DNA of 64,000 nucleotides from Candidatus Omnitrophica bacterium UBA6233. GTDB lineage: Bacteria; Omnitrophota; Gorgyraeia; Gygaellales; Profunditerraquicolaceae. A program made the translations under genes and the position numbers. Below are positions 5,258 to 56,693 of the stretch, piece by piece. The DNA is taken from the NCBI GenBank assembly GCA_002440965.1, contig DJWJ01000016.1, positions 7,409-71,408 of the forward strand. The letters run 5' to 3'. Within the stretch, counting starts at the first letter, position 1. Each line of letters opens with the position of its first letter. Below the pieces are notes generated by a model. It did no database searches. It was given only the letters and a program-made list of their open reading frames with translations, and was not told the origin of the DNA.

Positions 5258-5679
5258 GAAATTGTAGCTTTTTAGTTTTTCTTTTGTTCATAAGTATCGT
5301 TTTATCCGGTTGTGCTACTCCCGCCTCCAGCGTCCTTACCGCTGAATCCAGTCAGGTAAGATTAAGAAGTATCCAGACCAGGGCATTTGATACGGCGGAC
5401 AAAAAGAAGATGCTGCAAAACGTAATCAGCACTATGCAGGACCTGGATTTTGTCATTGATAAGGCTGATTTTACGCTTGGTTCGGTTACCGGGTCTAAAT
5501 TTTTGGGTTACGAAGTAGTTACAATGAGCGTAACTGTGCGGCCCAGAGGCGAAAAACAGCTGTTGGTTAGAGCCAACGCTCAGTACGGTATTAAGTCTGT
5601 AGAAGACCCCGCAACCTATCAGGATTTTTTTGTTGCTCTGGAAAAAGCTATATTTTTGACCGCGCAGCAGGTTGATTAA
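5254..5679 (+). CDS. lipoprotein, paralog 2 of a tandem pair
   Basis: Lipobox 'VLSGCAT'. Paralogous to 4697-5257; 4-bp overlap. Confidence 0.55.
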   Translation: MRNCSFLVFLLFISIVLSGCATPASSVLTAESSQVRLRSIQTRAFDTADKKKMLQNVISTMQDLDFVIDKADFTLGSVTGSKFLGYEVVTMSVTVRPRGEKQLLVRANAQYGIKSVEDPATYQDFFVALEKAIFLTAQQVD

Positions 5680-5794: not shown

Positions 5795-6115
5795 ATGGCC
5801 ACGATTGATGATTTCAGAAAAATAGAACTAAAAGTCGCTCAAATTAAAGAGGTTAGCGAACATCCTAACGCGGATAAACTTTTGATTTTGACCTTGGATT
5901 TAGGAGATAAAACAAAACAGGTAGTCGCCGGGATAAGAAGCGCCTACACCAGGGAAACGCTCTTGGGCAAATATGTGGTAGTAGTGGATAACCTGGATCC
6001 GGCTGTTTTAAGGGGCGTGGAGAGCCAGGGAATGGTTTTGGCCGGCTCAGATGAATCAGGAGTAGTAATTATTAGTCCGGAAAGGCCGTTGAAGCTAGGG
6101 AGCATAGTTAAATGA
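5795..6115 (+). CDS. tRNA-binding domain protein (CsaA/YgjH/EMAP-like)
   Basis: 'KIELKVAQIKEVSEHPNADKLLILTLDLGD...VVAGI' is typical of the tRNA-binding OB-fold found in MetRS C-termini and CsaA. Confidence 0.7.
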   Translation: MATIDDFRKIELKVAQIKEVSEHPNADKLLILTLDLGDKTKQVVAGIRSAYTRETLLGKYVVVVDNLDPAVLRGVESQGMVLAGSDESGVVIISPERPLKLGSIVK

Positions 6116-6618: not shown

Positions 6619-7495
6619 ACTAAGGCTTGGCGACAAGAAAATATTCGATAAATATCTGGCTTTCGAAAAGCACGAATTATCCGTTTATTCCTTCGCGAAT
6701 ATTTACATCTGGAGAAAGTTTTTTGATATACGTTGGGCCTTGATCAATAATAGCCTGTGTGTTTTTTTTCAGGATAAAATCGGCACGTTTTTATATCTTT
6801 CTCCGTTAGGTAAAAATAGAAATCCGCAAACTACAAAAGAAGTTTTCACGATTCTGGAAGAATTGAATAAAAATCCGGAGTTCGCTCATATTGAAAACGT
6901 CGAAGAAAAGGATTTGGATTTTTACAGGGAATTAGGCTTTAGATGCGAATTAAAAGCCTATGATTATCTTTGTAAACGCGTTGATTTAGCCGGATTAAAA
7001 GGGAATAAATTTAAATCCAAGCGTTCAAGTTGCAATTATTTTATCAAACACAATGATTTTACTTGGGAGAGGCTTTTGCTAAAAGATAGAAGTGCCTGCG
7101 TCAAGCTATATAATCTTTGGCAAAAACAAAGACAGGCGGATAACCCCGATCGTATCTATCAGGGATTATTAAATGATGGTTCAGTTGCCTTAAAAGAAGC
7201 GCTGGACAATTATAAGGCATTAGGTTTACAAGGTGTCGTGGTTAAGCTAAGTAAAGAAGTAAAAGGTTTTACTTTTGGGTTTGAACTGAATCCGGATACG
7301 TTTTGCATATTATACGAAATAACAGATCTTTCGGTTAAGGGTTTGGCGCAATTTATTTTCCGTTCCTTTAGTCAAGAACTAAAAGATTACAAATTTATCA
7401 ATGTTATGGATGACTCCGGTCTAGAAAACCTTAAAAAAGTAAAATTGTCGTATCATCCGCAGGAATTAGTCCCGGCGTATATCGTGAGAAATTAA
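6587..7495 (+). CDS. hypothetical protein (possibly DUF2156/aminoacyl-lipid-synthase-C-like fold)
   Basis: 302-aa ORF with no strong motif. Weak resemblance of the N-terminal region to DUF2156. Confidence 0.3.
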   Translation: MSSSFLMAINKLRLGDKKIFDKYLAFEKHELSVYSFANIYIWRKFFDIRWALINNSLCVFFQDKIGTFLYLSPLGKNRNPQTTKEVFTILEELNKNPEFAHIENVEEKDLDFYRELGFRCELKAYDYLCKRVDLAGLKGNKFKSKRSSCNYFIKHNDFTWERLLLKDRSACVKLYNLWQKQRQADNPDRIYQGLLNDGSVALKEALDNYKALGLQGVVVKLSKEVKGFTFGFELNPDTFCILYEITDLSVKGLAQFIFRSFSQELKDYKFINVMDDSGLENLKKVKLSYHPQELVPAYIVRN

Positions 7496-8348: not shown

Positions 8349-9378
8349 ATTAAAAAAAACAGTTTTGGCCTTGGGCCCGCAAACCAAAAATACAATTTGT
8401 TTTGCCAAAGGCAGCAATGCGTATGTCAGCCCAGTGCATGCGGAGCTAAGTTCTCCTAAAGATTTGTTAGCTTTTGAAAAAGACGCAAAATGCTTTCTTA
8501 AGAAGCATCCTAAGATTATAACCTGTGATTTACATCCTGAATATCAGTCAACCAAATTTGCTCTTTCTCTCTACGGTAGCTACAAGCCTGTATTAATTCA
8601 GCATCACCATGCGCATATTGCCGCTTGCATGGCAGAGAATGGGTTGAAAGATCAAAAAGTAATCGGCGTTGCTTTTGACGGCACAGGCTTAGGATCTGAC
8701 AATAACATTTGGGGCGCAGAATTTTTAGTCTGTAACTATAAAACATTTGTTAGGCAGGCGCACTTAAAAGAGATCCCGCTTGTTGGCGGAGAGAGAGCGG
8801 TTTTAGAACCCTGGAGAGTATTAGCTGCCTGGTTTGATTTTAATAAGAGTCAGGCCTTAAGAAAAATATATCAAGCCGGAATCAATTCCCCCCTAGCTAG
8901 TAGTATGGGCAGGTTATTCGACGCAGTTGCCAGCCTTATTTTAAATAAGAAAAAGGCGAGTTTCGAGGCAGAGTTGCCAATTGCCTTAGAAAAGCTCGCT
9001 GAAAAAGGCAAACTTCTAAGCTCAGGTTATAGATTTAACCTGAAAAAATACAAAGATAACTATATTATTGATCCGTCCGGAATATTTAAGCAGATCCCTA
9101 AGGATTTAAAATCAGGAATCTTGCGTAAAGATGTTGCCCTGAATTTCCATCGTAGTGTAGCCAGCATGATCGCGCAAACCTGTTTAGTTCTAAGAAGAAG
9201 AAATAAAACCAAGAAAGTAGTTTTATCCGGAGGAGTTTTTCAAAACAGGCTTTTACTGAATTTTAGTTCGGATTTATTAAATGAAGAAGGTTTTGAAGTT
9301 TTTACGCATCAAAAATTATCCTGCAATGATTCGTGTGTTTCTTTGGGGGAGGCAATTATAGCAGGTTTAAGGAGTTAA
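8317..9378 (+). CDS. hypF: HypF-like carbamoyltransferase, C-terminal Kae1/YgjD-like domain only (truncated HypF)
   Basis: 'LIQHHHAHIAACMAENG' and 'GVAFDGTGLGSD' match the HypF C-terminal domain. No acylphosphatase, Zn-finger or YrdC domains are encoded upstream. Start placed at the Met after the previous stop. Confidence 0.55.
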   Translation: MKTVKIKLPVKLKKTVLALGPQTKNTICFAKGSNAYVSPVHAELSSPKDLLAFEKDAKCFLKKHPKIITCDLHPEYQSTKFALSLYGSYKPVLIQHHHAHIAACMAENGLKDQKVIGVAFDGTGLGSDNNIWGAEFLVCNYKTFVRQAHLKEIPLVGGERAVLEPWRVLAAWFDFNKSQALRKIYQAGINSPLASSMGRLFDAVASLILNKKKASFEAELPIALEKLAEKGKLLSSGYRFNLKKYKDNYIIDPSGIFKQIPKDLKSGILRKDVALNFHRSVASMIAQTCLVLRRRNKTKKVVLSGGVFQNRLLLNFSSDLLNEEGFEVFTHQKLSCNDSCVSLGEAIIAGLRS

Positions 9379-9591: not shown

Positions 9592-10666
9592 TGAATTCCG
9601 AAATCCTAAGTTAGTCGAAAAAATCGCCGCAAGAATATCCAGCATCAACCCCGGGGATAAAATTGATATTATGGAGGTTTGCGGAACCCATACACAGAAT
9701 TTTTACCGTTTTGGGTTAAGAGAGCTTTTGCCTAAAAATGTCAGGTTAATTTCCGGACCCGGTTGTCCGGTGTGTGTAAGCCCGCAAAAGTATATTGATT
9801 CCGCTATTGAATTGGCCAAAGATAAGGATGTAATTATCGCTACCTTTGGCGATATGTTGCGCATGCCCGGAACCAATTCTTCGCTGGAAGAAGAAAAAAC
9901 CGAGTTTGGAAATGTCCGTATAGTCTATTCTCCTTTGGACACATTGTTTATAGCCAAAAAGAATCCCCACAAGAAAATAGTGTTTTTGGCGGTTGGTTTC
10001 GAGACCACCGCACCCACCATCGCCCTAACAATTTTATCCGCAAAAAAAGAGAAACTAAAGAATATTTTCTTTCTCTCGTCGCTTAGACTAATCCCGCCGG
10101 CTATGCGGTATTTGTTATCCGATAAGAGGCTCAAAATCGACGCATTTTTATGCCCGGGTCATGTTTCGGCAGTTATCGGAACGCAAGATTATGAATTTAT
10201 CCCGAAGAAATATGGAAAAGCCTGTTGTATCGCTGGTTTTGAGCCAGTGGATATTTTGGAAGGAATATGTAGAATTCTAGAGCAAATTATCCTAAATAAG
10301 CCATATGTGGCTAATCAATATACGCGCATAGTTACTAAAACCGGGAATACCCGGGCAAAAAGAGTCACTAACCGTGTGTTTGGAATAAGAGATTCTGAAT
10401 GGCGCGGCCTTGGTTTTATACCGGATAGCGGTCTAGAATTAAAAAGAGAATTTTCTGTTTTTGACGCAAAACGCGTTTTTTCTATTAGCGACAAGAAAAT
10501 CAAGGAAAAAATAACAAGTAGCTGCAGATGCGCTGATATTCTAAAAGGTGTTATTTCTCCGGAAGATTGTCCTTTATTTGTAAGAGCGTGCAATCCGGAT
10601 AATCCTATTGGCCCATGTATGGTTTCCAGCGAAGGAACGTGTAATGCATATTATAGGTATCGTTAG
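9572..10666 (+). CDS. hypD: hydrogenase maturation factor HypD
   Basis: 'CGTHTQNF', 'GPGCPVCV', 'FETTAP' and a C-terminal Cys-rich region; 364 aa. Confidence 0.85.
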   Translation: MPMRYVDEFRNPKLVEKIAARISSINPGDKIDIMEVCGTHTQNFYRFGLRELLPKNVRLISGPGCPVCVSPQKYIDSAIELAKDKDVIIATFGDMLRMPGTNSSLEEEKTEFGNVRIVYSPLDTLFIAKKNPHKKIVFLAVGFETTAPTIALTILSAKKEKLKNIFFLSSLRLIPPAMRYLLSDKRLKIDAFLCPGHVSAVIGTQDYEFIPKKYGKACCIAGFEPVDILEGICRILEQIILNKPYVANQYTRIVTKTGNTRAKRVTNRVFGIRDSEWRGLGFIPDSGLELKREFSVFDAKRVFSISDKKIKEKITSSCRCADILKGVISPEDCPLFVRACNPDNPIGPCMVSSEGTCNAYYRYR

Positions 10667-16921: not shown

Positions 16922-17017
16922 AAAATGACCAATAACCAAACCCCAAATCCGAATAAAATCTCAATTATTCAATTTCCAAAATTGGAATTTGAGATTTGGA
17001 GCTTCATTTGTCATTGT
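16922..17017. repeat. intergenic long imperfect palindrome (AAATGACMA...TTTGTCATT), related to the 47369/49226/52549 family
   Basis: The two arms 'AAATGACCAATAACCAAACCCCAAATCC' and 'GGAGCTTCATTTGTCATTG' are inverted relative to each other. Starts right after a stop codon. Confidence 0.5.
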
Positions 17018-17067
17018 AACTTGGGATTTAATCCAAAAGGGAATGTTTAACAAGGAGAGTAAAACTT

Positions 17068-44879: not shown

Positions 44880-46142
44880 ATGAAAAAAAGAAGAGTAGTG
44901 ATTACGGGGATTGGCGTAATTTCGCCTAATGGCATAGGTAAAGATAAAGTTTATCAGGCGATGACCAACGGCGTTTCCGGAATAAAACGGGTAGATGGTT
45001 TTGATGTTTCGGTATTTAATACCAAGATCGCCGCGGAAGTCCGTGACTTTGATCCGTTTAAGCTCGGGCTTACTCATGACGAAGCTGTACGTATGGATAG
45101 ATACGTACAATTTGGAGTGGTTGCCGGAAATATGGCGATTAAGGATAGCACCCTGGATCTTTCGAAAGTTAATCCTGAGAGGATCGGAGTTTGTCTTGCC
45201 AATGCCATTTGCGGGACAAAATATATGGAAGAAGAATTCGCTCTTGTAACTGACGATGGCAAGAAAGCAATTGATCCGTCAAAGGTCCGTCCTGACCTTT
45301 ATGATGCCGCGATGTTTAATACACCTTCCATTGAATTATCTTCGAAATATCATTTAAAAGGAATATGCAATACGCTCTCAACCGGCTGCACAGCCGGGAC
45401 TGATTCTTTAGGGTTTGGTTTAGAGACGATCCAGGATGGAGAGCAGGATATTATGATTTGCGGAGCGGCAGAGGCTCCGATCACGCCGATTACTTTTGGC
45501 GCTTTTGATGTGGTAAATGTTTTATCAGCCCGTAATGATGATCCTGAAGCTTCGTCACGGCCGTTTGATAACAAACGCGATGGATTTGTCTTAAGTGAAG
45601 GCGCCGGGATTTTAATTTTAGAAGAATTGAATCACGCTTTAAAACGTAACGCCCATATTTATTGCGAGGTTTTGGGTTTTGGCACCAGCTGTAACGCTTT
45701 TCATATGACTGACCTTCCGGGAGACGGAGGAGCAATGACTAATTGTATAACCCTGGCGTTAAAAGATGCCGGGATCAAACCGCAAGAGATAGATTATATC
45801 AGCGCCCACGGATCAAGCACGAAAATGAATGATATCTTCGAAACCAATGCTTACAAAACGGTTTTCGGAGATTACGCGTATAAACTTCCCATAAGTTCGC
45901 TTAAGTCAATGATCGGCCATCCCCTGGCTGCTTCTAACGCCGTGGAGATGACTGTTTGTTCGATGATTTTTGAAAAAAATATCCTTCCTCCGACTATCAA
46001 TCAGGAAGAGAAGGATCCCTTGTGCGACTTGAATTATATTCCCAATAAAGCAATCACCAAAAAAGTAAATACTATTATTAAGACTAGCTCTGGATTTTCC
46101 GGAATTCATTCTTCGTTGGTTGTGAGGAGATATAATGGATAA
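44880..46142 (+). CDS. beta-ketoacyl-ACP synthase (KAS I/II-like; KS-alpha)
   Basis: Active-site Cys 'LSTGCTAGTDSLG'; His 'SAHGSSTKMND'; His 'IGHPLAASNA'; 420 aa. Confidence 0.85.
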   Translation: MKKRRVVITGIGVISPNGIGKDKVYQAMTNGVSGIKRVDGFDVSVFNTKIAAEVRDFDPFKLGLTHDEAVRMDRYVQFGVVAGNMAIKDSTLDLSKVNPERIGVCLANAICGTKYMEEEFALVTDDGKKAIDPSKVRPDLYDAAMFNTPSIELSSKYHLKGICNTLSTGCTAGTDSLGFGLETIQDGEQDIMICGAAEAPITPITFGAFDVVNVLSARNDDPEASSRPFDNKRDGFVLSEGAGILILEELNHALKRNAHIYCEVLGFGTSCNAFHMTDLPGDGGAMTNCITLALKDAGIKPQEIDYISAHGSSTKMNDIFETNAYKTVFGDYAYKLPISSLKSMIGHPLAASNAVEMTVCSMIFEKNILPPTINQEEKDPLCDLNYIPNKAITKKVNTIIKTSSGFSGIHSSLVVRRYNG

Positions 46143-47361
46143 GATAGCGATTACTGGCATAGGTATTGTCAGTCCTTCAGGAATAAATAAACGCCAGTTT
46201 TGGGCGAATATAAAATCCGGCAGGTCTTTTGTAAAAGAAATTACTCGTTTTGATGCTTCTAAATATCCGTCGCATATAGCCGGGCAAATCGATGAGCTGA
46301 ACAAGTATAGCAATATCTCCGAGCGCCTGCTGAAAAAGATCGATGCGTTCTCGCATATGGCTTTAATTGCTTCTGAGCTTGCTTTGCAGGATGCCGGGAT
46401 AGATATAAAGAATGAAGACCCGAATTTAGTCGGCATATTTTTAGGTAACGCTATCGGCGGATGGCTTTACGCTGAAACAGAATTGCGTGATTTATATATC
46501 GAAGGCCGGGAAGGTGTTTCTCCTTACATGGCTTCAGCGTGGTTTCCGGCTGCCCCGCAAGGACAAGTTTCTATTTATTATGGTATTAAAGGATTTTCCA
46601 AAACAGTTGTCGCCGATAGAGCCGGTTCCTTGATGGCCTTAGGTTACGGAGCCAAGGTTTTAAATAAGAATAAATTAAATATGATTTTAGCCGGAGGCAT
46701 GGAAGCGCCGGTGTCGCCTTACGCGCTTTTATGCTGCAATACTTACGGAGCTTTATCCAAAAATAATTCCCAGCCTCAAGAAGCTTACAAGCCATTTGAT
46801 AAAAAGCGCGATGGCTTTGTAATCGGTGAAGGCGCGGGGATTGTGGTTATGGAGAGTGTGCAGAGGGCAAGTAAAAGAGGAGTTAAACCTTTGGCTTATA
46901 TTTCCGGATACTCGACCAGCTGCGACGGAATTGACCGGATCAATTGCGCAAGCGACGGGGTAGAATTAGCCAGAGCAATAAAACTAGCGCTTGCCGATGC
47001 TAAAACCAATATTGATGAAATTGATTATATAAGTCTAGATGGCGCGGCTATAAATTTGTGGGATGATTCTGAACTGCAGGCGATTAAAAGCATTTTTGGC
47101 GCCAGGACCAAAGATATTCCAATGAGTTGCCCTAAATCTATGTTCGGAAATTTACTGGGGGCAAGTGGAGCGGTGGATATGATTACTACTATCTTAGCGA
47201 TGGAACATAGTTTGGTTCCGGTTACTTTAAATTTAGACGAACCAAGTATGAAAGGTTTTAATTATATTACAAAAGAAGCCAAGGAATACAAAATCGATAA
47301 AGCCCTGGTGATTTCGCGCGGCAGGGGCGGAATCAATTCAGTTCTGGTGGTTGAAAAGTAA
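46135..47361 (+). CDS. ketosynthase-like partner lacking the catalytic triad (chain-length-factor / KS-beta-like)
   Basis: KS fold, but the active-site Cys is replaced ('VVADRAGSLMAL') and both His positions are altered ('LDGAAINL', 'GNLLGASGA'). 8-bp overlap with the KS-alpha gene. Confidence 0.7.
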   Translation: MDKIAITGIGIVSPSGINKRQFWANIKSGRSFVKEITRFDASKYPSHIAGQIDELNKYSNISERLLKKIDAFSHMALIASELALQDAGIDIKNEDPNLVGIFLGNAIGGWLYAETELRDLYIEGREGVSPYMASAWFPAAPQGQVSIYYGIKGFSKTVVADRAGSLMALGYGAKVLNKNKLNMILAGGMEAPVSPYALLCCNTYGALSKNNSQPQEAYKPFDKKRDGFVIGEGAGIVVMESVQRASKRGVKPLAYISGYSTSCDGIDRINCASDGVELARAIKLALADAKTNIDEIDYISLDGAAINLWDDSELQAIKSIFGARTKDIPMSCPKSMFGNLLGASGAVDMITTILAMEHSLVPVTLNLDEPSMKGFNYITKEAKEYKIDKALVISRGRGGINSVLVVEK

Positions 47362-47368
47362 ATAGTTT

Positions 47369-47500
47369 AATGACAAATGACAAAATCCAAAGCACAAAAT
47401 AAATCTAAAGTTCAAATGTCAAATACTAAAACTAATGTTTTGTTATTTAATTTTTGGAATTTGAATTTATTTTGGATCTTGTGCTTTGTCATTTGACATT
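47369..47500. repeat. intergenic long palindromic repeat, family 'AATGACAAATGACAAAATYCAAAGCACAAAATAAAT', copy A
   Basis: The 5' arm 'AATGACAAATGACAAAATCCAAAGCACAA' is mirrored by 'TTGTGCTTTGTCATTTGACATT'. Lies between the KS-beta stop and the rSAM RBS. Confidence 0.7.
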
Positions 47501-47515
47501 AAAAGAGGAGGAGTT

Positions 47516-48976
47516 ATGAAGATATTATTTGTAATGCCTAAAGTCGGTGCCTGGGCAACCCATGGGATTCACCGTTCGCCGAATCAGTTATACGCGCATT
47601 GGGCTGCTTATGTGCGTGAAAAAGGATATAAGGATGTGGCGGTTATTGACGGTAAAGCTGAGCAGATTCCGATGGATCAGCTTATCGAACAGGTAAAACT
47701 TAAGAACCCCGATGTGGTGGTAATGGGTGAGCAGCTGCATGGTTATGGCGGATACGGAGTTTTACGCCATTTTAAAGACGCGGCCATTGGAATTAAAAAA
47801 GCCCTGCCTAAAACCAAGATAATTCTCGGCGGATTATGGTATTCGGCAATGCCTGTTCCGACTTTAGAAGAAATTCCGGAAGTTGATTTCGTGGTTATGG
47901 GAGAAGAGGAGTCATTTGGAGATTTAATCGAGGCAATTGATAAGAATAAGCCGCTTAAGGATGTTGGCGGAGTAACTTCGCGCATCGATGGTAAGATAGT
48001 CATGGGCCCGCATAAACCATTGATGACGGATTTGGATAAATTACCTTTACCGGCTTATGATTTGTTTCCGATGGATAAGTACTCGGGCCACACTTATTGG
48101 AAACCGTTTGTGGATATGGTTACTTCCCGCGGCTGCCCTTCAGCCTGCACATTTTGTTATGAGTGGGATCAGTTTGATCCGCGCTCGCCTTCGGATTTCT
48201 TAAAATGGCGCGCCAAGAGCCCAGAAAGAGTAATTGAAGAATTGAAACTCCTGCGCGATAAATACGGAGTCAAAGTAGTAGTAATTCAGGATGATAATTT
48301 TATCGTGGATCCTGCGCGCGTCAAGAAATTCTGCGAGTTAAAAAAGAAAGCTAACATTGATACCAAATGGGTTGCTTTGGGCAGGGCTACTGATTGGATC
48401 AATTGCGAATCGATCTTACCTCTGATGAAAGAAACAGGTCTATTCATGGGAGTCTTTGGAATTGAAGTAACTACCCAGTCGGAACTTAAGAAGATCGCTA
48501 AAGGTATAACCATTGACCAGATCCAAAAGACAATCGATATCCTGCGCAAACAGAATATCGCGATTGTCGCTGACATTATGATGGGTTTTGATTATGATAC
48601 CGAAGAAATAATTAAGCAGCGTTTTGAGTTTACCGACGCGGTGGATCCGGATATTTTATGGGTTGGTTACGTGACTCCTGCGCCGAATTCGCCGATGTGG
48701 AAGGTTGCCTTAAAGAAAAACTGGATCGATCCCAAGAAAGTGGATTTCTCGACCTGGGATTTTCTGCACCCGGTAATTCCTACGGATCACTTAACTACTG
48801 AAGACTTAGGCAGGCTTGGTTCATGGTGTATGCGCGAATTTTTCTCCAAACCCGGACGGGTCAACCGGATCATGGAGAGCGATTTTGATCCGCTGGCCAA
48901 GCTTTGTTTCCAGGATGTTATGAATGGCATCAACAAGTGGGAAGCAGCCGCGACCAAGGGCGAAGTTCAGATATAA
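47516..48976 (+). CDS. B12-binding-domain radical SAM enzyme (class B rSAM)
   Basis: N-terminal cobalamin-binding-like domain; 'SRGCPSACTFC' CxxxCxxC motif. RBS AGAGGAGG before the ATG at 47516. Confidence 0.8.
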   Translation: MKILFVMPKVGAWATHGIHRSPNQLYAHWAAYVREKGYKDVAVIDGKAEQIPMDQLIEQVKLKNPDVVVMGEQLHGYGGYGVLRHFKDAAIGIKKALPKTKIILGGLWYSAMPVPTLEEIPEVDFVVMGEEESFGDLIEAIDKNKPLKDVGGVTSRIDGKIVMGPHKPLMTDLDKLPLPAYDLFPMDKYSGHTYWKPFVDMVTSRGCPSACTFCYEWDQFDPRSPSDFLKWRAKSPERVIEELKLLRDKYGVKVVVIQDDNFIVDPARVKKFCELKKKANIDTKWVALGRATDWINCESILPLMKETGLFMGVFGIEVTTQSELKKIAKGITIDQIQKTIDILRKQNIAIVADIMMGFDYDTEEIIKQRFEFTDAVDPDILWVGYVTPAPNSPMWKVALKKNWIDPKKVDFSTWDFLHPVIPTDHLTTEDLGRLGSWCMREFFSKPGRVNRIMESDFDPLAKLCFQDVMNGINKWEAAATKGEVQI

Positions 48977-48990
48977 GCTAAAGGAAGGAT

Positions 48991-49227
48991 ATGGAGATGA
49001 AAGCGAAAGTTAAAGAAGTTTTGGTTAATTTGCTCAAAGTCAAACCTGAAGAATTAAAGGATGGTGTTTCTTTGGAAGAGAGTATAGGCGTGGATTCAAC
49101 TGAAATGGTTGAGTCAGTCATTGCTCTGGAAAAGGCTTTTGGAGTGAAGTTAAGCCCTAAAGAAATTAGCAAGTCTTCCAGCATTGACGATATCGCGAAA
49201 ATTATAAGTAGCAAGATAAGCGTTTAA
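48991..49227 (+). CDS. acyl carrier protein
   Basis: 78 aa; phosphopantetheine-attachment context 'GVDSTEMVESVIALEKAFGV'. Confidence 0.7.
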   Translation: MEMKAKVKEVLVNLLKVKPEELKDGVSLEESIGVDSTEMVESVIALEKAFGVKLSPKEISKSSSIDDIAKIISSKISV

Positions 49228-49328
49228 TGACAAATGTCAAAATTCAAATGTCAAAATTCAAATGTAAAAACCAAGGTATTTAGTTTTGTAATTTGCGCTT
49301 TGACATTTGAATTTTGACATTTGACATT
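49226..49328. repeat. intergenic long palindromic repeat, same family, copy B
   Basis: 'AATGACAAATGTCAAAATTCAAATGTCAAAATTCAAATG' is mirrored by 'CTTTGACATTTGAATTTTGACATTTGACATT'. Lies between ACP and the cyclase gene. Confidence 0.7.
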
Positions 49329-49340
49329 AGCTATTTATTC

Positions 49341-50138
49341 ATGAAGATTATTGATTTAAGTCTTCCAATAGATGACAAGGCGTTTGAGGTGCACAAGGTA
49401 GCCATTGAGCGGGTAACTCATAAGGCGGGGATTAAGAAGTTTAACCGCGTGATTATGGGTAAGACGCTGGCGGGAAGAGTTAAATACCTTTTGGGAAAAC
49501 GCATCCTCAAGAAAGAAGATTTACCTGACGAAGAATTTTTATCACTGGAAGTCGTGCATTCTCCGGTTCACGTCGGCACCCACCTGGATTATTCATTCCA
49601 TTACGGATCAAAATCCGAAAACCGCACCTCTAAAACAGCCGAAGAGATCCCGCTGGAATATTGTTATCAAGACGGAGTAAGGCTCAATCTTACCCATAAA
49701 AAACCCAATGAAAAAATTCTTTCCGCGGATATCGAAGCAGCGCTTAAAAAAATAAATTATAAATTAAAACCTCTGGATATTGTTTTTTTGCATACCGGAG
49801 CGGATAAGTTTTTTGGTTCGCCAAAATATTTCTCGGATTATCCGGGAGTGGATACTTCGGCGATAGATTATCTTTTGGACCAGGGAGTCAAGATTTTTGG
49901 GGTGGATACAATGGGTATTGACCGTCCATACAGGTTTATGCTTAAAGAATTCCTGGAGAGTAAAAATCTTAAGGCTTTATACCCGGCGCATTTTTATGGA
50001 AGAAAAAGAGAATTCATCCATATCGAGAGGCTGGCTAATTTAGAGAAGCTTCCGGCAACTGGGTTTAAGGTTATTTGTTTTCCGGTGAAGATTAAAAATA
50101 CAGGCGCGGCTTGGTCGCGAGTAGTTGCAATATTATGA
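49341..50138 (+). CDS. cyclase-family protein (PF04199-like; kynurenine-formamidase/putative-cyclase fold)
   Basis: 'MKIIDLSLPI' start and 'HSPVHVGTHLDYSFHY' (HxGTHxD) metal-binding motif. Start moved to 49341 because the tabulated ORF start runs into the repeat. Confidence 0.65.
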   Translation: MKIIDLSLPIDDKAFEVHKVAIERVTHKAGIKKFNRVIMGKTLAGRVKYLLGKRILKKEDLPDEEFLSLEVVHSPVHVGTHLDYSFHYGSKSENRTSKTAEEIPLEYCYQDGVRLNLTHKKPNEKILSADIEAALKKINYKLKPLDIVFLHTGADKFFGSPKYFSDYPGVDTSAIDYLLDQGVKIFGVDTMGIDRPYRFMLKEFLESKNLKALYPAHFYGRKREFIHIERLANLEKLPATGFKVICFPVKIKNTGAAWSRVVAIL

Positions 50139-50191
50139 CACCCGGCCTTAAAGGGTAGGCCGGTGTGCGCTTTCTGCGCAAGGAGGATTAA

Positions 50192-50629
50192 ATGGGACAC
50201 ACTTGTAATTCGATAATAATCAAGGCGCCATATGATTTAGTATTTGATATTTCCAATGATATCCCGCGCTGGACCGAATTATTTGGCAGCGAATACAAAA
50301 AAGCTGAGATTACAAAAAAAGAAGAGAACAAGATTACTTTTTGCCTGACTGATGATGAAGATAAGTCTTGGATTTCTTGGAGACTGCTTTATAAAGACAA
50401 ATTCTTTACTTATTCTGAAAGGCAGGAGCCGAAATTTCCGTTTAAATATATGAAAATCGTCTGGCTCTATACCCAAAAGCCGGAAGGAGTGGAATTAACC
50501 TGGATTCAACATTTTGAAATGGATGATAAAGCCAAGTTCAATGATGAGCAGGTCGAGGGCTTCATTAATAAGCATTCCAAAGACAATCTGTTAATTTTTA
50601 AGAATGTAATTGAAAAAGCAGCAGCTTAA
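50192..50629 (+). CDS. SRPBCC (Bet v1/START-like) polyketide cyclase/dehydrase-like protein
   Basis: 'SIIIKAPYDLVFDISNDIPRWTELF' is typical of the Polyketide_cyc2/SRPBCC N-terminus; 145 aa. Confidence 0.55.
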   Translation: MGHTCNSIIIKAPYDLVFDISNDIPRWTELFGSEYKKAEITKKEENKITFCLTDDEDKSWISWRLLYKDKFFTYSERQEPKFPFKYMKIVWLYTQKPEGVELTWIQHFEMDDKAKFNDEQVEGFINKHSKDNLLIFKNVIEKAAA

Positions 50630-50657
50630 AACAATGCTCCGCGCATAGCGCGGAGTT

Positions 50658-50692
50658 AAATAAGCGCCAAGCGCCAGTGGCGGCGCTTATTT
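50658..50692 (+). terminator. stem-loop (AATAAGCGCC...GGCGCTTATTT), preceded by a second hairpin CTCCGCGC-atag-GCGCGGAG
   Basis: 10-bp perfect stem with a T-rich tail. Immediately upstream of RBS AAGGAGG of the SDR gene. May act as an intra-operon attenuator or RNA-stability element. Confidence 0.45.
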
Positions 50693-50705
50693 AAGGAGGT
50701 AGAAA

Positions 50706-51482
50706 ATGAATCAGGACTTAAAAGGTAAGGTAGCGATTGTAACCGGAGCAAGCCGAGGGATTGGCAAGGCTCTTGCCTGCACTGCGGCAAGCTTAGGAGT
50801 AAATTTAACTATTGCTGCCCGCGGAGAAGGCCAATTAAAAGAAGCAGCTGAAGAAATCGCCAAAAAATATAAGGTAGATGTTTTAGCTGTTCCTTGCGAT
50901 GTCACTAAATTAGAGGACCTCGAGAATTTGGTGAATAAAACCAAGGAGAAATTCGGTAAGATCGATATTTTGATCAATAACGCCGGAGTTTCTTCGCAGT
51001 ATCCATTTCAAGATCAGCCGATTGAGGATTTTGAGCGCCTGGCCCATACAAATTATTTGGGTTATGTGCGCCTGATCCGTTTGGTTATCAACGATATGAT
51101 CAAAAATAAAAGCGGCGCGATCATCAATATGGTTTCCGGCTCTACTCTTTGCGATCCGCTACCCAGGAATTTTATCGTTTATAGCTCATTAAAAGTCGGT
51201 TTGCGCGCGTTCTCTAAAGGGTTATTTTGGGAATTGCGCGACCACGGTATCAAAGTTACTTCGATATTGCCCGGGGTTACGGACACGGATCTGACCGGAA
51301 AATTAAGCGAGATTACCGCTGATACTAAAAGATTGATGAGCACTGAGGCAATCGAAGACGCGGTCAGGTTTGCTTTGACTGTGCCGCAGAATGTTTGTCC
51401 CCTAGAGATCGCGGTAATCAATCAGCAAACCCCGTGGACAGCTCCGGTAATACCATTTGCACAGAAGCATCCGGGAAAATAG
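50706..51482 (+). CDS. short-chain dehydrogenase/reductase (FabG/ketoreductase-like)
   Basis: 'GKVAIVTGASRGIGKALA', 'NNAG' and 'YSSLKVGLRAF' (YxxxK). Confidence 0.8.
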   Translation: MNQDLKGKVAIVTGASRGIGKALACTAASLGVNLTIAARGEGQLKEAAEEIAKKYKVDVLAVPCDVTKLEDLENLVNKTKEKFGKIDILINNAGVSSQYPFQDQPIEDFERLAHTNYLGYVRLIRLVINDMIKNKSGAIINMVSGSTLCDPLPRNFIVYSSLKVGLRAFSKGLFWELRDHGIKVTSILPGVTDTDLTGKLSEITADTKRLMSTEAIEDAVRFALTVPQNVCPLEIAVINQQTPWTAPVIPFAQKHPGK

Positions 51483-51546
51483 CTTAACGGCACCCGACGC
51501 TGATCGGAATTGCGTCGGTGTTGTCATGGTAGGCAAGGAGGATTAA

Positions 51547-52155
51547 GTGAAAAAAATATTTTTAGCGGCGGCATTGTTATTAGGGATAACAGGAATTAGT
51601 TTTACGGCAGATGGAAATTTGCTGGTTGATGATTTTGAGATCGCGGTTTCAGCTGGGCCAGACGGCACAGTTGATTTTGGCGCGGGAAACGGCTCAATTA
51701 TAAAAGTTACCGCGGCCGCGGATGTTAAAAATACCGGAAAACAAGGTCTAAAGGTTGATTTTGACGCGGTTACCGGCGGGTATATGTATGTTGCCCGCGG
51801 CGAAGGGCTTGACGCGCATAATACCGGCTGGCTCGTAAATCCGGATAGCATCAAATGGCAGGATTATAAGGCATTTTCTTTTTATATGTATGGCTCAGAT
51901 TCCAAAGGTAAAATAGCTTTTGATCTTAAAGACAGTGGAAATGAAATCTGGCGTTTTATAGTTGAAGATAATTTCAAGGGGTGGAAGCAGATCATCTGTA
52001 ATTTTGATCAATTTACCGTAAGGGGCGATTGGCAGCCGCAAACAGCTGATAATAACGCGGCGCTTAATTTTCCGATCCGTTCATTTCAATTTGAGCCGCT
52101 TCCTCCATTAAAGGGCACGATTTATTTTGATACAATGGAGTTGATCAAGAAATAA
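51547..52155 (+). CDS. secreted hypothetical protein (beta-sandwich / carbohydrate-binding-module-like)
   Basis: Signal peptide 'MKKIFLAAALLLGITGISFTA'. No catalytic motif recognised. Confidence 0.4.
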   Translation: MKKIFLAAALLLGITGISFTADGNLLVDDFEIAVSAGPDGTVDFGAGNGSIIKVTAAADVKNTGKQGLKVDFDAVTGGYMYVARGEGLDAHNTGWLVNPDSIKWQDYKAFSFYMYGSDSKGKIAFDLKDSGNEIWRFIVEDNFKGWKQIICNFDQFTVRGDWQPQTADNNAALNFPIRSFQFEPLPPLKGTIYFDTMELIKK

Positions 52156-52547
52156 TGAATAAGCGGGATTTAAAGAACTTAAAAAAGCGTTACCTCATCT
52201 GGTTTTATAAGACTTCCAAAGAGGCGCTTGATAAAGTCGAGCGGAAATTCAGCCAGGTTGATATCGACCGTTTTATTCTTAAGGAATTGCAAGCTTCGGA
52301 TAAGGATAAAGCGGTTGAACTTTTGATCGCTCAGTTTGAAGCGTATATTCAAAAGAAGGAAGCAGATGGCCTTGACTTAAAGTTCGAGAATAAGAAGTTA
52401 AAGCCGGATTATTTATTCCTTTCCTGGAAATTAGAAGCAATTGAAAAAGCGATTGTCAAAGAGCTGGGTAAAAAGGGGCTCGAAGAGATAAAGCTTCTCT
52501 ATGAAGTTGAGATGATTGAGCGAATATTGAGAAGTACAGAACATTAA
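52155..52547 (+). CDS. hypothetical protein
   Basis: 130-aa charged, helical ORF; no recognisable motif. Confidence 0.3.
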   Translation: MNKRDLKNLKKRYLIWFYKTSKEALDKVERKFSQVDIDRFILKELQASDKDKAVELLIAQFEAYIQKKEADGLDLKFENKKLKPDYLFLSWKLEAIEKAIVKELGKKGLEEIKLLYEVEMIERILRSTEH

Positions 52548-52548
52548 G

Positions 52549-52690
52549 TAATGACAAATGACAAAATTCAAAGCACAAAATAAATTCAAAATCAAAATTA
52601 CCAATGACAAAACCTTGGTTTTGACATTGGGTATTTGTCATTTAAATTTATTTTGAATTTTGAGCTTTGGTATTTGTCATTTTGAATAAT
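52549..52690. repeat. intergenic long palindromic repeat, same family, copy C
   Basis: 'AATGACAAATGACAAAATTCAAAGCACAAAATAAATTC' is mirrored by 'GAGCTTTGGTATTTGTCATTTTGAAT'. Shares its first ~36 nt with copy A at 47369. Confidence 0.7.
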
Positions 52691-52760
52691 CGTTCAGCAA
52701 CCCCCGGGCTTTAGCCTGAGGAGTATTCATTTTTTTGGCTTTGGGATTTGACATTAAATT

Positions 52761-53669
52761 ATGATTATAGACAGTCATAGTCACTGGTTACCTGAAGGAA
52801 TAATCAATAGCGCCCATTTCTATCATAAAGGTTGGGGAGATATTGAGGCTCAGCTTAAGATGATGGATGCGGCGGGGATTGCTAAGGCGGTTTTAACATA
52901 CCCAACTTCTGACGCGCATTTAAAAATGGGGAGTATCTCTGAAGTCGTGCGTATATTTAATGACCACGTCGCTAAAATCATCAAAAAATATCCGGATAGA
53001 TTTATCGGAGCGGCAATTCTTCCCATAGACCACCAGCCGGATATGCTTAAAGAAATAAAGCGGACTACAGAAGAATTGGGATTTAAAGCTATTTCTTTAG
53101 CAACTAGTTATGGCGGAGTTTATTTGGATGATGCTAGATTTATGGATGTATATAAGTTAGCCCAAAGCAAAAATTTACCGATCTTTGTGCATTCGCAGAT
53201 TGTTAAGCCGATAGGAACTGAGCGCGTAGAGGATCCGCTACTTACTCCGGTAATTGAGTATGTGTTTGATACGACGATGTGTATTGGCAAGCTTTTGATG
53301 TCGGATATTCTGCGCGATTACCAGACTAAATTTATTTTTGGTTATTTTGGCGGAGTTACGCCGTTTTTGGCAAATAGATTTGACGCGACTTATCAAATGC
53401 TGCGAGGGATGAACTTTGTTAAGGATTTGCAAGCTAAGCCTACAGAATTATTAAAGAATATTTATGTGGATACTAGCGGAGATACGACTAAAGCTAATTT
53501 TCAGGCAGCCTTAGAGTTGTTCGGGCCGCAGCATATTTTATGGGGGAGCGACTGGCCAGCCAAGCGCGACATCGCTCCAGGCATCAATGCAATCAAAGAA
53601 TTGAATATATCCGACGCGGATAAGAATAGTATATTAGGCGGTAATTTAGCTCAGCTTTTTGCTCTTTAG
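52761..53669 (+). CDS. amidohydrolase-2 family (PF04909, TIM-barrel metal-dependent hydrolase/decarboxylase)
   Basis: 'MIIDSHSHW' and 'ILWGSDWP' are hallmarks of the ACMSD/amidohydrolase_2 family. Confidence 0.7.
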   Translation: MIIDSHSHWLPEGIINSAHFYHKGWGDIEAQLKMMDAAGIAKAVLTYPTSDAHLKMGSISEVVRIFNDHVAKIIKKYPDRFIGAAILPIDHQPDMLKEIKRTTEELGFKAISLATSYGGVYLDDARFMDVYKLAQSKNLPIFVHSQIVKPIGTERVEDPLLTPVIEYVFDTTMCIGKLLMSDILRDYQTKFIFGYFGGVTPFLANRFDATYQMLRGMNFVKDLQAKPTELLKNIYVDTSGDTTKANFQAALELFGPQHILWGSDWPAKRDIAPGINAIKELNISDADKNSILGGNLAQLFAL

Positions 53670-53679
53670 CAATTTGTGT

Positions 53680-53825
53680 CTGGCTTGTCTTGTTTAGCCT
53701 CGGGGTCCTGCCGCGGAAGTTTCCCCATTCCTGCGGTCAGGTTTGTCCTCGGAACGGGGAAGCCCCTCTTCCGCGTCACCCCTCCGGCATTACTCTAGAC
53801 ATAAGTGTAAACAAGCCAACCCAGC
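53680..53825 (+). ncRNA. candidate signal recognition particle RNA (ffs-like extended hairpin)
   Basis: GC-rich ~145-nt imperfect hairpin: 5' GGCTTGTCTTGTTTAGCC...3' GTAAACAAGCC, with CCGCGGAAG pairing CTTCCGCG. The apical region contains 'GGTCAGGT...GGAA...GGGGAAGC', resembling the SRP RNA helix-8 consensus 'GGUCAGGUCCGGAAGGAAGCAGC'. Confidence 0.35.
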
Positions 53826-53869
53826 CACAAATGTGGACTCACAGCACCTTTTGGCAAAATAGCTCTTAA

Positions 53870-54190
53870 ATGGTTTAAATGAATCTGGCAAGTTTATCCG
53901 CGAATTGAGATTTTAGCCAAAGCACGCTTGAGGATTTTCGGGAATTCCGAGGCCAAGCTGAAAGCTTGGCAATCTCGGAACGGCTGTCCGATGTTTGTAG
54001 TATAGAGACAGGCTGAGAGCGCCGAGTGAAAGCACGAGGCGCGAGTTCGGCAGCCGCCGAAAATACGAAAGACCTTTGGCGGCACGCTCCTAATTCTGTT
54101 AGCGGGCAAAATCGATTGAGCGGGAAACTTGGCAGATTCATTAAAACTTACTCGACAGGACCCGCGTAAGGTCTAGAGTTAACAAAGTGG
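53870..54190 (+). ncRNA. GC-rich structured non-coding region upstream of crcB (unassigned; possible riboswitch/leader or small RNA)
   Basis: No ORF with coding character. Several local hairpins (GGCCAAGC-tgaa-AGCTTGGC; GCCGCC...GGCGGC; CGCC-gagtgaaagcacga-GGCG). GC content is clearly above the surrounding genes. Confidence 0.25.
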
Positions 54191-54206
54191 TAGATTTATC
54201 AATATT

Positions 54207-54943: not shown

Positions 54944-55693
54944 ATGCAAATGGTAAAAGATGTGCATCTGACGGGAAAAGATCTGACACAAATGGTTCAA
55001 TTACGCCAGCAGGATGTGGGCAAATACGCGATTGTTCCGGGCCCCAAGGATAGGCTGGAAGTTTTAATGAAGAAAATCGAGAATCCGGTCAAGAATTTTA
55101 CTTTTATGGAATATTCCATGTTCACCGGGACTTATCAAGGGATCAAGATTACCATGATGAACGGCGGAAGATTTTCTACGGATACCTCGATTACCTCGGA
55201 AGTAATGTGCAATGCCAGAATTGATAATATTATCCGCGCGGGCTCTGCCGGTTCTTTGGATGAAAATATAAAAGTAGGAGATTTATTCGTGGTTGATGAA
55301 GTTATCCGCGGAGACGGGGTTACGCCTTATTATGTGGATAAGGACTTTAAAACAGTTGCCGATAAAAAAATTGCCGATACGCTTTATGAGGCGGGTAAGG
55401 CTATGGGTATAAATATCCATCGTGGAAAGGCCTGGAGCACGGATGCGCTTTTACGCGAAACCAGAGAAATCGTCGAAGCTAAGCGTAAAGAGGGGGCAAG
55501 AGCCGTAGATATGGTCTCTTCAACGCTTTTGACCATTGCCCAGACTTATGGCGTTAAAGCAGGTTCGATCCTGGCCGTAAGCGATAATGTGATTACCGGC
55601 GAAATGGGTTTTATGAATCCATTGTATTATATGGCTGAGGCGAATATTTTAAAAATTGCCCTTGAGGCAGTGGTAAAATTAGAGGGAAAATGA
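54944..55693 (+). CDS. PNP/UDP-family nucleoside phosphorylase (MTA/5'-deoxyadenosine/purine nucleoside phosphorylase-like)
   Basis: 'IDNIIRAGSAGSL' and 'VDMVSSTL' are typical of the PNP_UDP_1 fold. Confidence 0.65.
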   Translation: MQMVKDVHLTGKDLTQMVQLRQQDVGKYAIVPGPKDRLEVLMKKIENPVKNFTFMEYSMFTGTYQGIKITMMNGGRFSTDTSITSEVMCNARIDNIIRAGSAGSLDENIKVGDLFVVDEVIRGDGVTPYYVDKDFKTVADKKIADTLYEAGKAMGINIHRGKAWSTDALLRETREIVEAKRKEGARAVDMVSSTLLTIAQTYGVKAGSILAVSDNVITGEMGFMNPLYYMAEANILKIALEAVVKLEGK

Positions 55694-56658
55694 AATTTTC
55701 TCCGCTTTTCTGGCCGATCCAGTTTAAAAACGGGATAATTTATATCCTTGATGAAACTCTCCTGCCGCATAAGCTTACCTATATAAAGGCAAAGAACTAC
55801 CAGGAGGCCTGTCGCGCGATAAAAGAAATGAAAACCCGGGCTGTGGGCCAGGTCATTCTGGTAATGTATATTTTTCTGCAATTACTCGAGCAAGGGAAAA
55901 AGAAAGACCTGGTTAAAGTTGCTCAAGCTATCAACTCTACCCGTCCGACTTTATCATTTAAGTTTTTAACCGATATGGTTTTGGGTTGGGCTAAATCCGG
56001 CGCTCCTTTAGATAAATGCATTACGGGATTTTTAGAAGGTTTAAAATACAGCCGGATCAAACAAGCTGAAGAAGCCAGCAAATTAATTAAAAGCGGTGAT
56101 TGCATATTAACTCATTGCAATATCAGTGGTCTCCTGCCTTTAATCGGAGAAATTTGTCAAAAGCAGGGTAAAAAGATAAGTTTTTTCGCGACTGAAACCC
56201 GTCCATATATGCAAGGCTCGCGTTTAACTGCCTGGGAGTTAAAACAAGCCGGATTTGACGTAACCATAATCACCGATAATATGGTTGCCGCGGTTATGTC
56301 TTTGGGTAAGGTAAATAAAGTTATTGTCGGCGCGGATCATTTGGCGCAAAACGGAGATATCGCCAATAAAATCGGAACTTATGGAATCGCGGTCTTAGCT
56401 AGACATTTCAATCTGCCTTTTTATGTTTTATGCCCGCCGGCTTCCGGATTAAAGAGCGGCAAAGATATCAAAATCGAGATCAGACCGGATATCGAGATGC
56501 TTGAGTATCAGGGTTTGCGCTTGGCGCCTATTGGCGCGAAAGGTTATTATCCGGCATTCGATGTTACTCCCAATAAATTAATTACCAAACACATCCATTT
56601 AAATGTAGGGACGGTTCTCAATTCAAGGCAGAAGTGTCCCCGGAGGGGACAGTTTTAG
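55690..56658 (+). CDS. eIF-2B alpha/beta/delta family isomerase (MtnA-like 5-(methylthio/deoxy)ribose-1-phosphate isomerase)
   Basis: 'GADHLAQNGDIANKIGTYGIAVLARHFNLPFYVLCP'. Confidence 0.75.
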   Translation: MKFSPLFWPIQFKNGIIYILDETLLPHKLTYIKAKNYQEACRAIKEMKTRAVGQVILVMYIFLQLLEQGKKKDLVKVAQAINSTRPTLSFKFLTDMVLGWAKSGAPLDKCITGFLEGLKYSRIKQAEEASKLIKSGDCILTHCNISGLLPLIGEICQKQGKKISFFATETRPYMQGSRLTAWELKQAGFDVTIITDNMVAAVMSLGKVNKVIVGADHLAQNGDIANKIGTYGIAVLARHFNLPFYVLCPPASGLKSGKDIKIEIRPDIEMLEYQGLRLAPIGAKGYYPAFDVTPNKLITKHIHLNVGTVLNSRQKCPRRGQF

Positions 56659-56693
56659 GTTGGTTTGAGAACCGTCCCTAATAGAGGAGAGAG

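Follow-up and report, generated by a model that had tools for sequence, protein, structure and literature searches.

A palindromic insertion family in operons of Candidatus Omnitrophota, probably derived from PF05635 cassettes

The hairpin copies and their operon

The DNA analysed here, called the window throughout, is a stretch of 64,000 nt on contig DJWJ01000016.1 of Candidatus Omnitrophica bacterium UBA6233, and the elements in question are long intergenic palindromes, designated copies A to D (Table 1). Copies A, B and C lie in a co-directional cluster resembling those of polyketide synthases (PKS), with the order ketosynthase (KS) alpha, KS-beta, copy A, B12-binding radical SAM protein (rSAM), acyl carrier protein (ACP), copy B, cyclase, polyketide-cyclase-like protein, SDR, CBM11-like protein, a 130-aa open reading frame (ORF), copy C and amidohydrolase. 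Copy A begins 6–7 nt past the KS-beta stop TAA (47359–47361), copy C begins 1–2 nt past TAA 52545–52547, and the first TAA of copy B (49225–49227) is itself the stop codon of the ACP gene, bearing out a preliminary description of this DNA in which the copies began near stop codons. The end of copy B is followed after 11 nt by the true cyclase ATG (49341), with no Shine-Dalgarno sequence between.

An inverted-repeat search returned A, B and C as the three longest inverted repeats in the entire window. The arms of A (47366–47432 and 47437–47503) are 67 nt long and 75% complementary, those of B (49225–49274 and 49280–49329) 50 nt and 84%, and those of C (52550–52614 and 52617–52681) 65 nt and 77%. 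The single strands fold at −39.0 (A), −42.2 (B) and −43.6 kcal/mol (C), with z-scores of −5.6, −8.3 and −6.9; none of 200 dinucleotide shuffles folds equally well, and folding of the opposite strands is equally good. The three imperfect inverted repeats and their stable hairpins had thus been recognised correctly. So had the common 5′ end of A and C, about 36 nt long: the first 36 nt are identical at 35 positions, with a single C/T difference at position 19. The motif AAATGWCAAAW occurs eight times in the window against 0.46 expected, every time within A, B or C, and the 18-mer AATGACAAATGACAAAAT has seven matches with up to three mismatches against 0.2 expected. The orphan right terminus beyond copy C (TTTGGGATTTGACATTA) suggests that the spacer there may be composite, arising from two events or as a recombinant. 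Assembly artefacts can be dismissed, since independent assemblies (JGI, ENA, Logan and NCBI) contain identical element copies.

Table 1. Element copies in the window and neighbouring genes with corrected starts
Feature	Position	Strand	Remarks
Copy A	47366..47503	+	ORF-less palindromic element in the spacer between the KS-beta and B12-radical-SAM genes
Copy B, short variant	49225..49329	+	Spacer between the ACP and cyclase genes
Copy C	52548..52687	+	Hairpin 52550–52681; between ORF 52155–52547 and the amidohydrolase gene (ATG 52761)
Copy D	16923..17030	+	Decayed family member, 3′ of stop codon 16915–16917
Orphan right terminus	52740..52756	+	Read off the sequence; 53 nt 3′ of copy C, directly before the amidohydrolase start
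B12-binding radical SAM gene, corrected start	47516..48976	+	Pfam PF04055, PF02310
Cyclase gene, corrected start	49341..50138	+	N-terminus MKIIDLSLPID conserved; called as 265 aa in locus L118

Dispersed copies and empty sites

A scan of one genome per species with the 18-mer AATGACAAATGACAAAAT returned more than 117 loci of two kinds. In about 50 loci of Nostocales cyanobacteria the 18-mer sits within plain tandem (TGACAAA)n arrays, and in about 30 loci of Omnitrophota metagenome-assembled genomes (MAGs) from many environments it opens a long hairpin as in the window. BLAST found full-length homologues of 125–145 nt, 75–88% identical to A or C, in many Omnitrophota loci. A metagenome scan with the 36-nt core added 64 further loci, so that the element, which the preliminary description knew from the window, is abundant elsewhere; the collection is incomplete, as the window's own pattern-bearing contig was not among the 36-mer matches.

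A profile hidden Markov model of the family was built from 16 copies and run with nhmmer on the approximately 1.6 Mb of fetched loci (L numbers below). It matched 179 places, among them 81 distinct full-length copies, which stand at unrelated loci in many MAGs and are 75–90% identical across the whole ~133 nt; 133 nt is the modal length, found in 35 of the 71 measured copies. Copies A and C score 114.9 (E 3e-33) and 119.2 (E 2e-34), and copy B has an E value of 1e-12. Scores above 85 are confined to Omnitrophota MAGs, and more diverged full-length copies are found in MAGs labelled Planctomycetota, Chlamydiota, Desulfobacteraceae and Parcubacteria, where mis-binning is possible. Local density can be high, with five copies in 13.6 kb of L161 and four in 8.7 kb of L135, which comes from the window's own sample. 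As for the more diverged copy placed earlier at 16922–17017, its membership of the family stands, with a weak profile match (score 23.4, E 5e-5), and its hairpin does not, because shuffled sequence folds as well (z +0.2). Copy D is a decayed relic that has lost the stable hairpin.

The arms are arrays of a degenerate 7-nt unit (AATGACA AATGACA AAATTCA AAGCACA AAATAAA ...), and the two arms are mutually inverted. Self-match at lag 7 is 0.564, compared with 0.364 ± 0.004 in shuffles, and at lag 14 it is 0.472. The consensus ends are T-TAATGACAAATGACAAAAT ... ATTTTG.CATTTG.CATTA-A. In 68 copies the outer 18 pairs of the terminal inverted repeats are conserved, one pair varying on one side only. 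T precedes the element at −1 in 56 of 71 copies (79%), and A follows the last T of ...CATT in most; such flanks would fit a TA or TTAA target and equally an extension of the palindrome. All three frames are closed by stop codons at the left end (TAA, TGA, and TAA at about +34), and the upstream ORF of 23 copies extends across the boundary to an internal TAA of the element, which gives it the tail ..MTNDKIQSTK*. Among the 81 copies, 52 lie between co-directional genes, five between convergent and two between divergent ones. The better-conserved arm is upstream relative to transcription in 56 of 70 copies and opposed in 14. Rfam at its gathering score found only two tRNAs in the window, and at E ≤ 1 only sub-threshold look-alikes of eukaryotic miRNA precursors.

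The orthologous operon was recovered from relatives at 98, 92, 91, 90, 88, 83 and 82% rSAM identity. Among these, family copies at the A and B sites are found only in L196 (MAG STD1_202, 98% rSAM identity), and L197 and L198 have none at A and B. L128 (91% rSAM identity) is empty at all three sites: the A site is a 29-nt spacer, the ACP stop overlaps the cyclase start at the B site (ATGA), and at the C site the codons overlap as TAATG. Neither L129 nor L131 has an insert at B or C, and the C site of L131 is an ATGA overlap. At the B site of L128, L129 and L131 the stop and start codons overlap or abut; in the window, copy B holds the ACP and cyclase genes about 113–114 nt apart and leaves the cyclase without a Shine-Dalgarno sequence.

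Because the orthologous operons of sister lineages have empty sites, the copies are insertions. By this comparison the insertion took place in the window's lineage, and parsimony would place the gain in an ancestor common to the window and L196. Filled and empty sites were compared across species, whose spacers have diverged too far for a base-exact junction. Since the sister-lineage operons do without the elements, these are not part of the operon design, and their clustering is lineage-specific. The earlier idea that they demarcate sub-operons finds no support in the same element-free operons, with their overlapping stop and start codons; the suggestion of a non-autonomous mobile element like the miniature inverted-repeat transposable elements (MITEs) agrees with a dispersed, non-coding family of palindromic insertions.

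The operon spacers are hot spots for other palindromes too. Between KS-beta and rSAM, four lineages have four unrelated hairpins. The spacer between the cyclase gene and the following gene (cyc2) contains a GC-rich hairpin in the window, a family copy in L196, GC-rich palindromes in L129 and a complete PF05635 cassette in L198; the spacers of L196 and the window are non-homologous here. At the A site of L196 the element is composite, with an additional C-like right arm.

Variation among strains shows how the arms change. In ten strain contigs A and C are unchanged, A being identical in L118–L122, and B is dimorphic. Strains that are 99.5% identical over 20 kb differ in copy B by one 18-nt indel per arm and four substitutions; the spacers measure 114 and 150 nt, from matched 18-nt indels after 49242 and 49312. 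The long allele is ancestral because it is common to L196. The left-arm deletion is flanked by 15-nt direct repeats, which points to slippage as its probable cause. The outermost 31 nt of the right arm of the short allele complement the left arm at 30 of 31 positions without G-U pairs, and this sequence is missing from the long allele. The simplest account would be one slippage deletion, after which the other arm may have been re-templated from its partner by an intra-strand template switch. Two different family copies (L152 11653–11819 compared with L141 809–945; L179 5526–5693 compared with L168 10017–10155) contain, nested at the same inner position, a GC-rich double hairpin of 30 nt, CTCCGCCACAGGCGGATCCGCCTTCGGCGGA, and orthologues in other strains are without it; it represents either a very small site-specific mobile element or gene conversion between copies. 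Matched indels, an apparently re-templated arm and nested 30-nt hairpins thus make the strain variants a record of palindrome evolution in a natural population.

PF05635 cassettes with related and unrelated arms

In L188 the family arms lie about 330 nt apart, and the interval encodes a 116-aa protein. It is assigned to Pfam PF05635 (E 4e-15) and NCBIfam TIGR02436 (four-helix-bundle protein, E 7e-21), and its closest solved structure is PDB 2rld (E 6e-16). The database search returned 2445 homologues at E ≤ 1e-10; the 120 matches listed are 66–100% identical, and the named ones among them are from Omnitrophota. A jackhmmer search of all ORFs of about 200 loci gave five non-redundant homologues. 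When the contexts of three homologues were fetched (L200, L204 and L206), all three genes were found at the apex between family arms. Together with L188 and L013, five loci have a PF05635 ORF between family arms. The arms match the family profile with E values of 1e-14 on either side in L188, 4e-9 and 1e-12 in L204, and 2e-6 and 1e-13 in L206; the right arm of L200 gives 1e-14 and the left arm of L013 6e-9. In these ORF-bearing relatives both arms fold together. The L200 cassette (880–1470), whose left arm is truncated, lies within a second and unrelated heptamer hairpin (CCGTAAT CCGTAAA CCGTAAT .. ATTACCGATTACCG).

All cassette ORFs run from the left to the right arm, in the same direction as their neighbours, and the orientation bias of the ORF-less copies follows from this co-orientation. 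The apex of ORF-less copies, ..CAAAAC-NNNNN-GTTTTG.., matches the ORF boundaries, ..CAAAAC TTAAAA [ATG ... TAA] GTTTTG.., and they therefore look like apex deletions. At the level of sequence, the arm homology of the window copies with the PF05635 cassettes is clear. In the window, copies A to D, the last of them a relic, are ORF-less members of a ~133-nt palindromic insertion family of Candidatus Omnitrophota, which probably derives from PF05635 cassettes.

The ancestor would have been a cassette of about 480 nt in which two arms enclosed the gene for the 116-aa PF05635/TIGR02436 protein at the apex of the hairpin. The ORF would have been lost from the window copies as the transposase is lost from MITEs, so that the cassettes would relate to the window hairpins as insertion sequences relate to MITEs, the larger partner here encoding no known transposase. 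The element is presumably transcribed within the operon, and its arms would pair into a long, mostly A-U stem, a probable substrate of RNase III like the intervening sequences of rRNA. At the base of the stem the stop codon of one gene would come close to the start codon of the next, and this proximity would make insertion into translationally coupled gene pairs, such as the one that received copy B, tolerable. In all likelihood the element is a selfish or nearly neutral sequence and not a purpose-built regulator.

Intervening sequences with an ORF are known from the 23S rRNA genes of Leptospira and Coxiella, and excision by RNase III is established for rRNA intervening sequences. The likeness is close. 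Two inverted arms form a long stem with an ORF for a PF05635 four-helix-bundle protein of about 115–120 aa at its apex (here in the family relatives), the total is about 450–500 nt, short ORF-less versions exist too, and the insertion is in a transcribed region and co-oriented with it. The arms of the Azospirillum intervening sequence are likewise ~7-nt repeats (GAGGACG / CGTCCTC). However, protein-coding genes flank the window copies and nearly all others, which sit at stop/start junctions and not in helix 25 or 45 of 23S rRNA; the Omnitrophota family is highly multi-copy, and its window copies are ORF-less.

PF05635/TIGR02436 is the "S23 ribosomal protein" family, with thousands of copies, whose members also go by the name of 23S rRNA intervening-sequence proteins, and to our knowledge it has no known function outside diversity-generating retroelements. 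Other PF05635 genes were read for the same architecture. Those in the Omnitrophota loci L138, L148 and L198 have different arm sequences, again as matched, inverted arrays of ~7-nt units. A tblastn search of plasmids gave 35 records, mostly from Nostocales, and heptamer arrays are clear, matched and inverted in seven of the ten contexts that were read: Calothrix (GGGTGTA / TACACCC), Geminocystis (AAGGGAA / TTCCCTT), Riemerella (AAGGTTT / AAACCTT), Leptolyngbya, Stanieria (GGCAGAA / TTCTGCC), Anabaena sp. 90 (GGTGACA / TGTCACC) and Azospirillum lipoferum (L213), the last being the genuine 23S rRNA intervening sequence mentioned above. In the other three, the arrays are partial (N. punctiforme) or direct rather than inverted (Pseudanabaena), or one arm is lost beside an ISL3 insertion (PCC 7120 gamma). 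Overall, 10 of the 13 other PF05635 genes, from Omnitrophota, Cyanobacteria, Bacteroidota and Azospirillum, have clear arms of this kind. The flank-to-flank duplex energy has a median of −44.7 for 18 PF05635 genes and −29.2 for 62 window genes (p 2e-6), an indicative figure only, as base composition across phyla is uncorrected.

Two of the plasmid genes, in L207 (Pseudanabaena galeata pPg_01) and L216 (Anabaena sp. 90 pANA02), lie with their heptamer arrays exactly between cas6 and cas4 of a CRISPR-Cas locus. In five Nostocales loci (L014 1720–2810, L022 1265–2068, L051 5779–6625, L008 5860–6454 and L004 6417–7604), inverted heptamer arrays of the same class (AATGACT/AATGACC ... TTTGTCA/TTTGTCC) bracket host genes. 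These encode ribosomal proteins L1 and L5/S8, a TruA-like and an ITPase-like protein, with no PF05635 gene between the arrays.

It is possible, and we propose it tentatively, that PF05635 genes and the inverted ~7-nt-repeat arms around them belong together as a single widespread class of mobile cassettes of the intervening-sequence kind, which inserts into transcribed DNA (rRNA helices, operon stop/start junctions) in Omnitrophota, Cyanobacteria, Bacteroidota and Pseudomonadota, with abundant ORF-less hairpins as its MITE-like offspring. If so, the offspring would include the window elements, perhaps also the rRNA intervening sequences of the classical ORF-less type, and some of the short tandemly repeated repetitive (STRR) sequences of cyanobacteria. 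The PF05635 protein would be the hallmark gene, and its role might be to bind the heptamer arms or to work alongside a reverse transcriptase like Avd; the mobility mechanism would be new, the cassettes being transposase-free. An orphan family is in any case tied to a concrete DNA architecture outside rRNA, with inverted heptamer arms, an apex ORF and operon junctions. Two old puzzles become tractable, the nature and movement of rRNA intervening sequences and the nature of cyanobacterial heptamer repeats. Searches of the literature found nothing connecting PF05635 with heptamer arms, and nothing on palindromes of Omnitrophota; the family is an abundant repeat, previously undescribed, of a large phylum of uncultured bacteria.

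The PF05635 proteins share homology with Avd (PMC10053308), and published work describes the family as Avd-like and functionally uncharacterised. The L148 protein has a weak bAvd-like Pfam match (E 6e-6, below the cut-off). In contrast to diversity-generating retroelements, the cassettes examined have no adjacent reverse transcriptase, template repeat or variable repeat.

Alternative explanations and the host operon

Several observations weigh against a descent of the window elements from mobile PF05635 cassettes. The window copies carry no ORF, and a jackhmmer search of the ORFs found no PF05635 gene in the window, so the proposed link would run through arm homology with loci elsewhere. Loss of the ORF is favoured over its capture by parsimony. 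We know of no transposition activity of PF05635. Mobility is suggested solely by presence and absence at orthologous sites and by dispersal, and the flank statistics of 71 copies give no clean target-site duplication. Nor is there a strand-specific RNA signature: in 70 copies the sense and antisense strands fold at −41.6 and −40.8 kcal/mol (Wilcoxon p 0.33), and G-U pairs number 213 against 167. RNAalifold on 68 copies gave no compensatory changes, the outer 18 pairs never varying on both sides. These outer pairs are all that it recovered, the interior being out of register from shifts of heptamer units. Selection on an RNA stem is thus not demonstrated, and a palindrome acting as DNA would look alike. 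The loci were fetched through exact matches to one arm, which biases the copy statistics towards well-conserved copies.

An ordinary DNA-transposon MITE would account for much of this. A transposase encoded elsewhere, for example of the IS630/Tc1 type with a TA target, would recognise the termini TAATGACAAATGACA...TGTCATTTGTCATTA, and PF05635 would be an occasional passenger. The terminal inverted repeats are conserved, any variation in their outer pairs being confined to one side; the T at −1 and the A past ...CATT are what a TA duplication predicts, the copies are dispersed and of uniform length, their insertion is polymorphic between lineages, and the Correia, RUP and ERIC elements offer precedents. 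The TA flank is itself palindromic, however, and hence not diagnostic. Pairs of family termini 400–4000 nt apart (in L001–L199 and the window) enclose host genes or PF05635 and no transposase. PF05635 is the sole cargo seen, in five of five close homologues examined, and the recurrence of the arm-ORF-arm design with unrelated arms in four phyla is unexpected for a passenger. We therefore regard this explanation as unlikely. Growth of the hairpins in place, by heptamer expansion in AT-rich spacers and intra-strand template switching as in cyanobacterial STRR arrays, would need no mobility. The 7-nt periodicity is strong, the 18-mer forms plain arrays in Nostocales, copy B displays slippage and arm-to-arm templating among strains, and lineages hold differing repeat-based hairpins in equivalent spacers. 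Independent growth would not converge on a single sequence, though, and the 81 copies agree over the whole length, the non-periodic centre and apex included, with one modal length and one preferred orientation; growth in place is very improbable.

The elements might instead be cis-regulatory, as terminators or attenuators, mRNA stabilisers or arrays of TGACA/TGTCA transcription-factor sites that partition the PKS-like cluster into sub-operons. Three copies fall inside 5.3 kb of a single cluster, TTGACA hexamers are present in the right arms, and long stems can protect 3′ ends. The orthologous clusters of L128, L129 and L131 nevertheless function without elements, and the element occurs at dozens of unrelated loci. 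Promoter and terminator scans are unenriched (20 compared with 22.5 expected and 14 compared with 10.6 expected), and neither an Rfam family nor a folding bias of the sense strand is found. The earlier suggestion of intrinsic terminators in particular fails, because there is no GC-rich stem with a U tract, the scan places no site in A, B or C, and the copies lie mostly between co-directional genes and seldom between convergent ones. A regulatory origin is accordingly improbable, and derivation from PF05635 cassettes is the reading we prefer.

Among known repeats, the family resembles the Correia elements of Neisseria, ERIC/IRU of enterobacteria and RUP of Streptococcus pneumoniae, which are imperfect palindromes of 100–150 nt with conserved termini and dozens to hundreds of copies, lie between co-transcribed genes near stop codons, have TA-like flanks and are transcribed into stem-loops. 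Correia elements are also RNase III substrates. Those elements are related to transposase-bearing insertion sequences, whereas here the sole larger relative carries PF05635 and no transposase; the Omnitrophota arms are heptamer arrays, with no sequence similarity to those elements. STRR sequences share the 7-nt tandem units in intergenic DNA, the heptamer TGACAAA/AATGACA being arrayed in Nostocales, and on cyanobacterial plasmids PF05635 genes have inverted heptamer arrays to either side. STRR are near-perfect tandem repeats of variable length, whereas the Omnitrophota element is a degenerate, single-sequence family of fixed length with a defined apex. Repetitive extragenic palindromes (REP) and the mosaic elements (BIME) built from them, with which the copies had been compared, are also intergenic palindromes often 3′ of stop codons. 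The comparison does not hold, as REPs are GC-rich sequences of 20–40 nt with a conserved GTAG head, arranged in doublets and mobilised by RAYT, and an AT-rich, heptamer-built element of 133 nt is set apart from them by size, composition and build.

The family disturbs gene calling. The mechanical start of the rSAM ORF, TTG 47486, falls inside copy A, and the true ATG at 47516 follows the ribosome-binding site GAGGAGG. For the cyclase ORF the mechanical start is TTG 49314, in the right arm of copy B, as had been suspected; ATG 49341 is the true start because the N-terminus MKIIDLSLPID is conserved in four orthologues (L128, L129, L130 and L131). In addition, an 11-aa tail encoded by the element is added in about 30% of copies with an upstream gene, and PF05635 ORF calls are inflated in other loci.

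Proteins encoded in the window match Candidatus Omnitrophota MAG proteins exactly; the rSAM product has 486 aa and is identical to NCBI MFA5063105.1. It has 634 homologues at E ≤ 1e-60; among the matches listed, many of the closest named ones are from Omnitrophota, and most are 486 aa long. The type-II-PKS/FAS-like (fatty acid synthase-like) cluster (window 44880–53669; L128–L131 and L196–L199) is strongly conserved in Omnitrophota with syntenic gene order, and contains KS-alpha, KS-beta, B12-radical-SAM, ACP, cyclase, SRPBCC cyclase, SDR and amidohydrolase genes. In the window as a whole (1–64000), 61 of the 64 mechanically called genes are on the + strand, and the GC skew is positive throughout, the cumulative skew rising monotonically. 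The window therefore lies on one replichore, with its genes co-oriented.

Other palindromes occur in and beyond the operon. The cyclase/cyc2 spacer (50139–50191) has a small GC-rich double hairpin (CACCCGGCC..GGCCGGTG, then TGCGCTTTCTGCGCA, then AGGAGG), whose 3′ half is found again in L129, where three spacers of the orthologous operon contain it (5841–6000, 8571–8705 and 10275–10547). These palindromes are a second intergenic family and supply the Shine-Dalgarno sequence of the downstream gene. Before the SDR gene (50630–50705) stand two adjacent GC-rich hairpins (CTCCGCGC..GCGCGGAG; AAATAAGCGCC..GGCGCTTATTT; z −5.1), kept at the equivalent site of L196 (6862–6950). An inverted repeat at 56606–56680, with 36-nt arms (TAGGGACGGTTCTC.. 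/ ..GAGAACCGTCCCTA) that are 81% complementary, spans the end of gene 55690–56658, and at its ends it is similar to the GGGGACGGTTCTG.. palindromes occupying three L198 spacers (3750–3996, 5461–5592 and 6915–7038). The 537-nt spacer 5′ of crcB/DUF190 (53670–54206), in which Rfam found no match, the fluoride riboswitch at E ≤ 1 included, has a GC-rich structured segment at 53930–54090 (−66 kcal/mol, z −5.2). The orthologous spacer of L131 (12423–12824) is also highly structured, at −134 kcal/mol.

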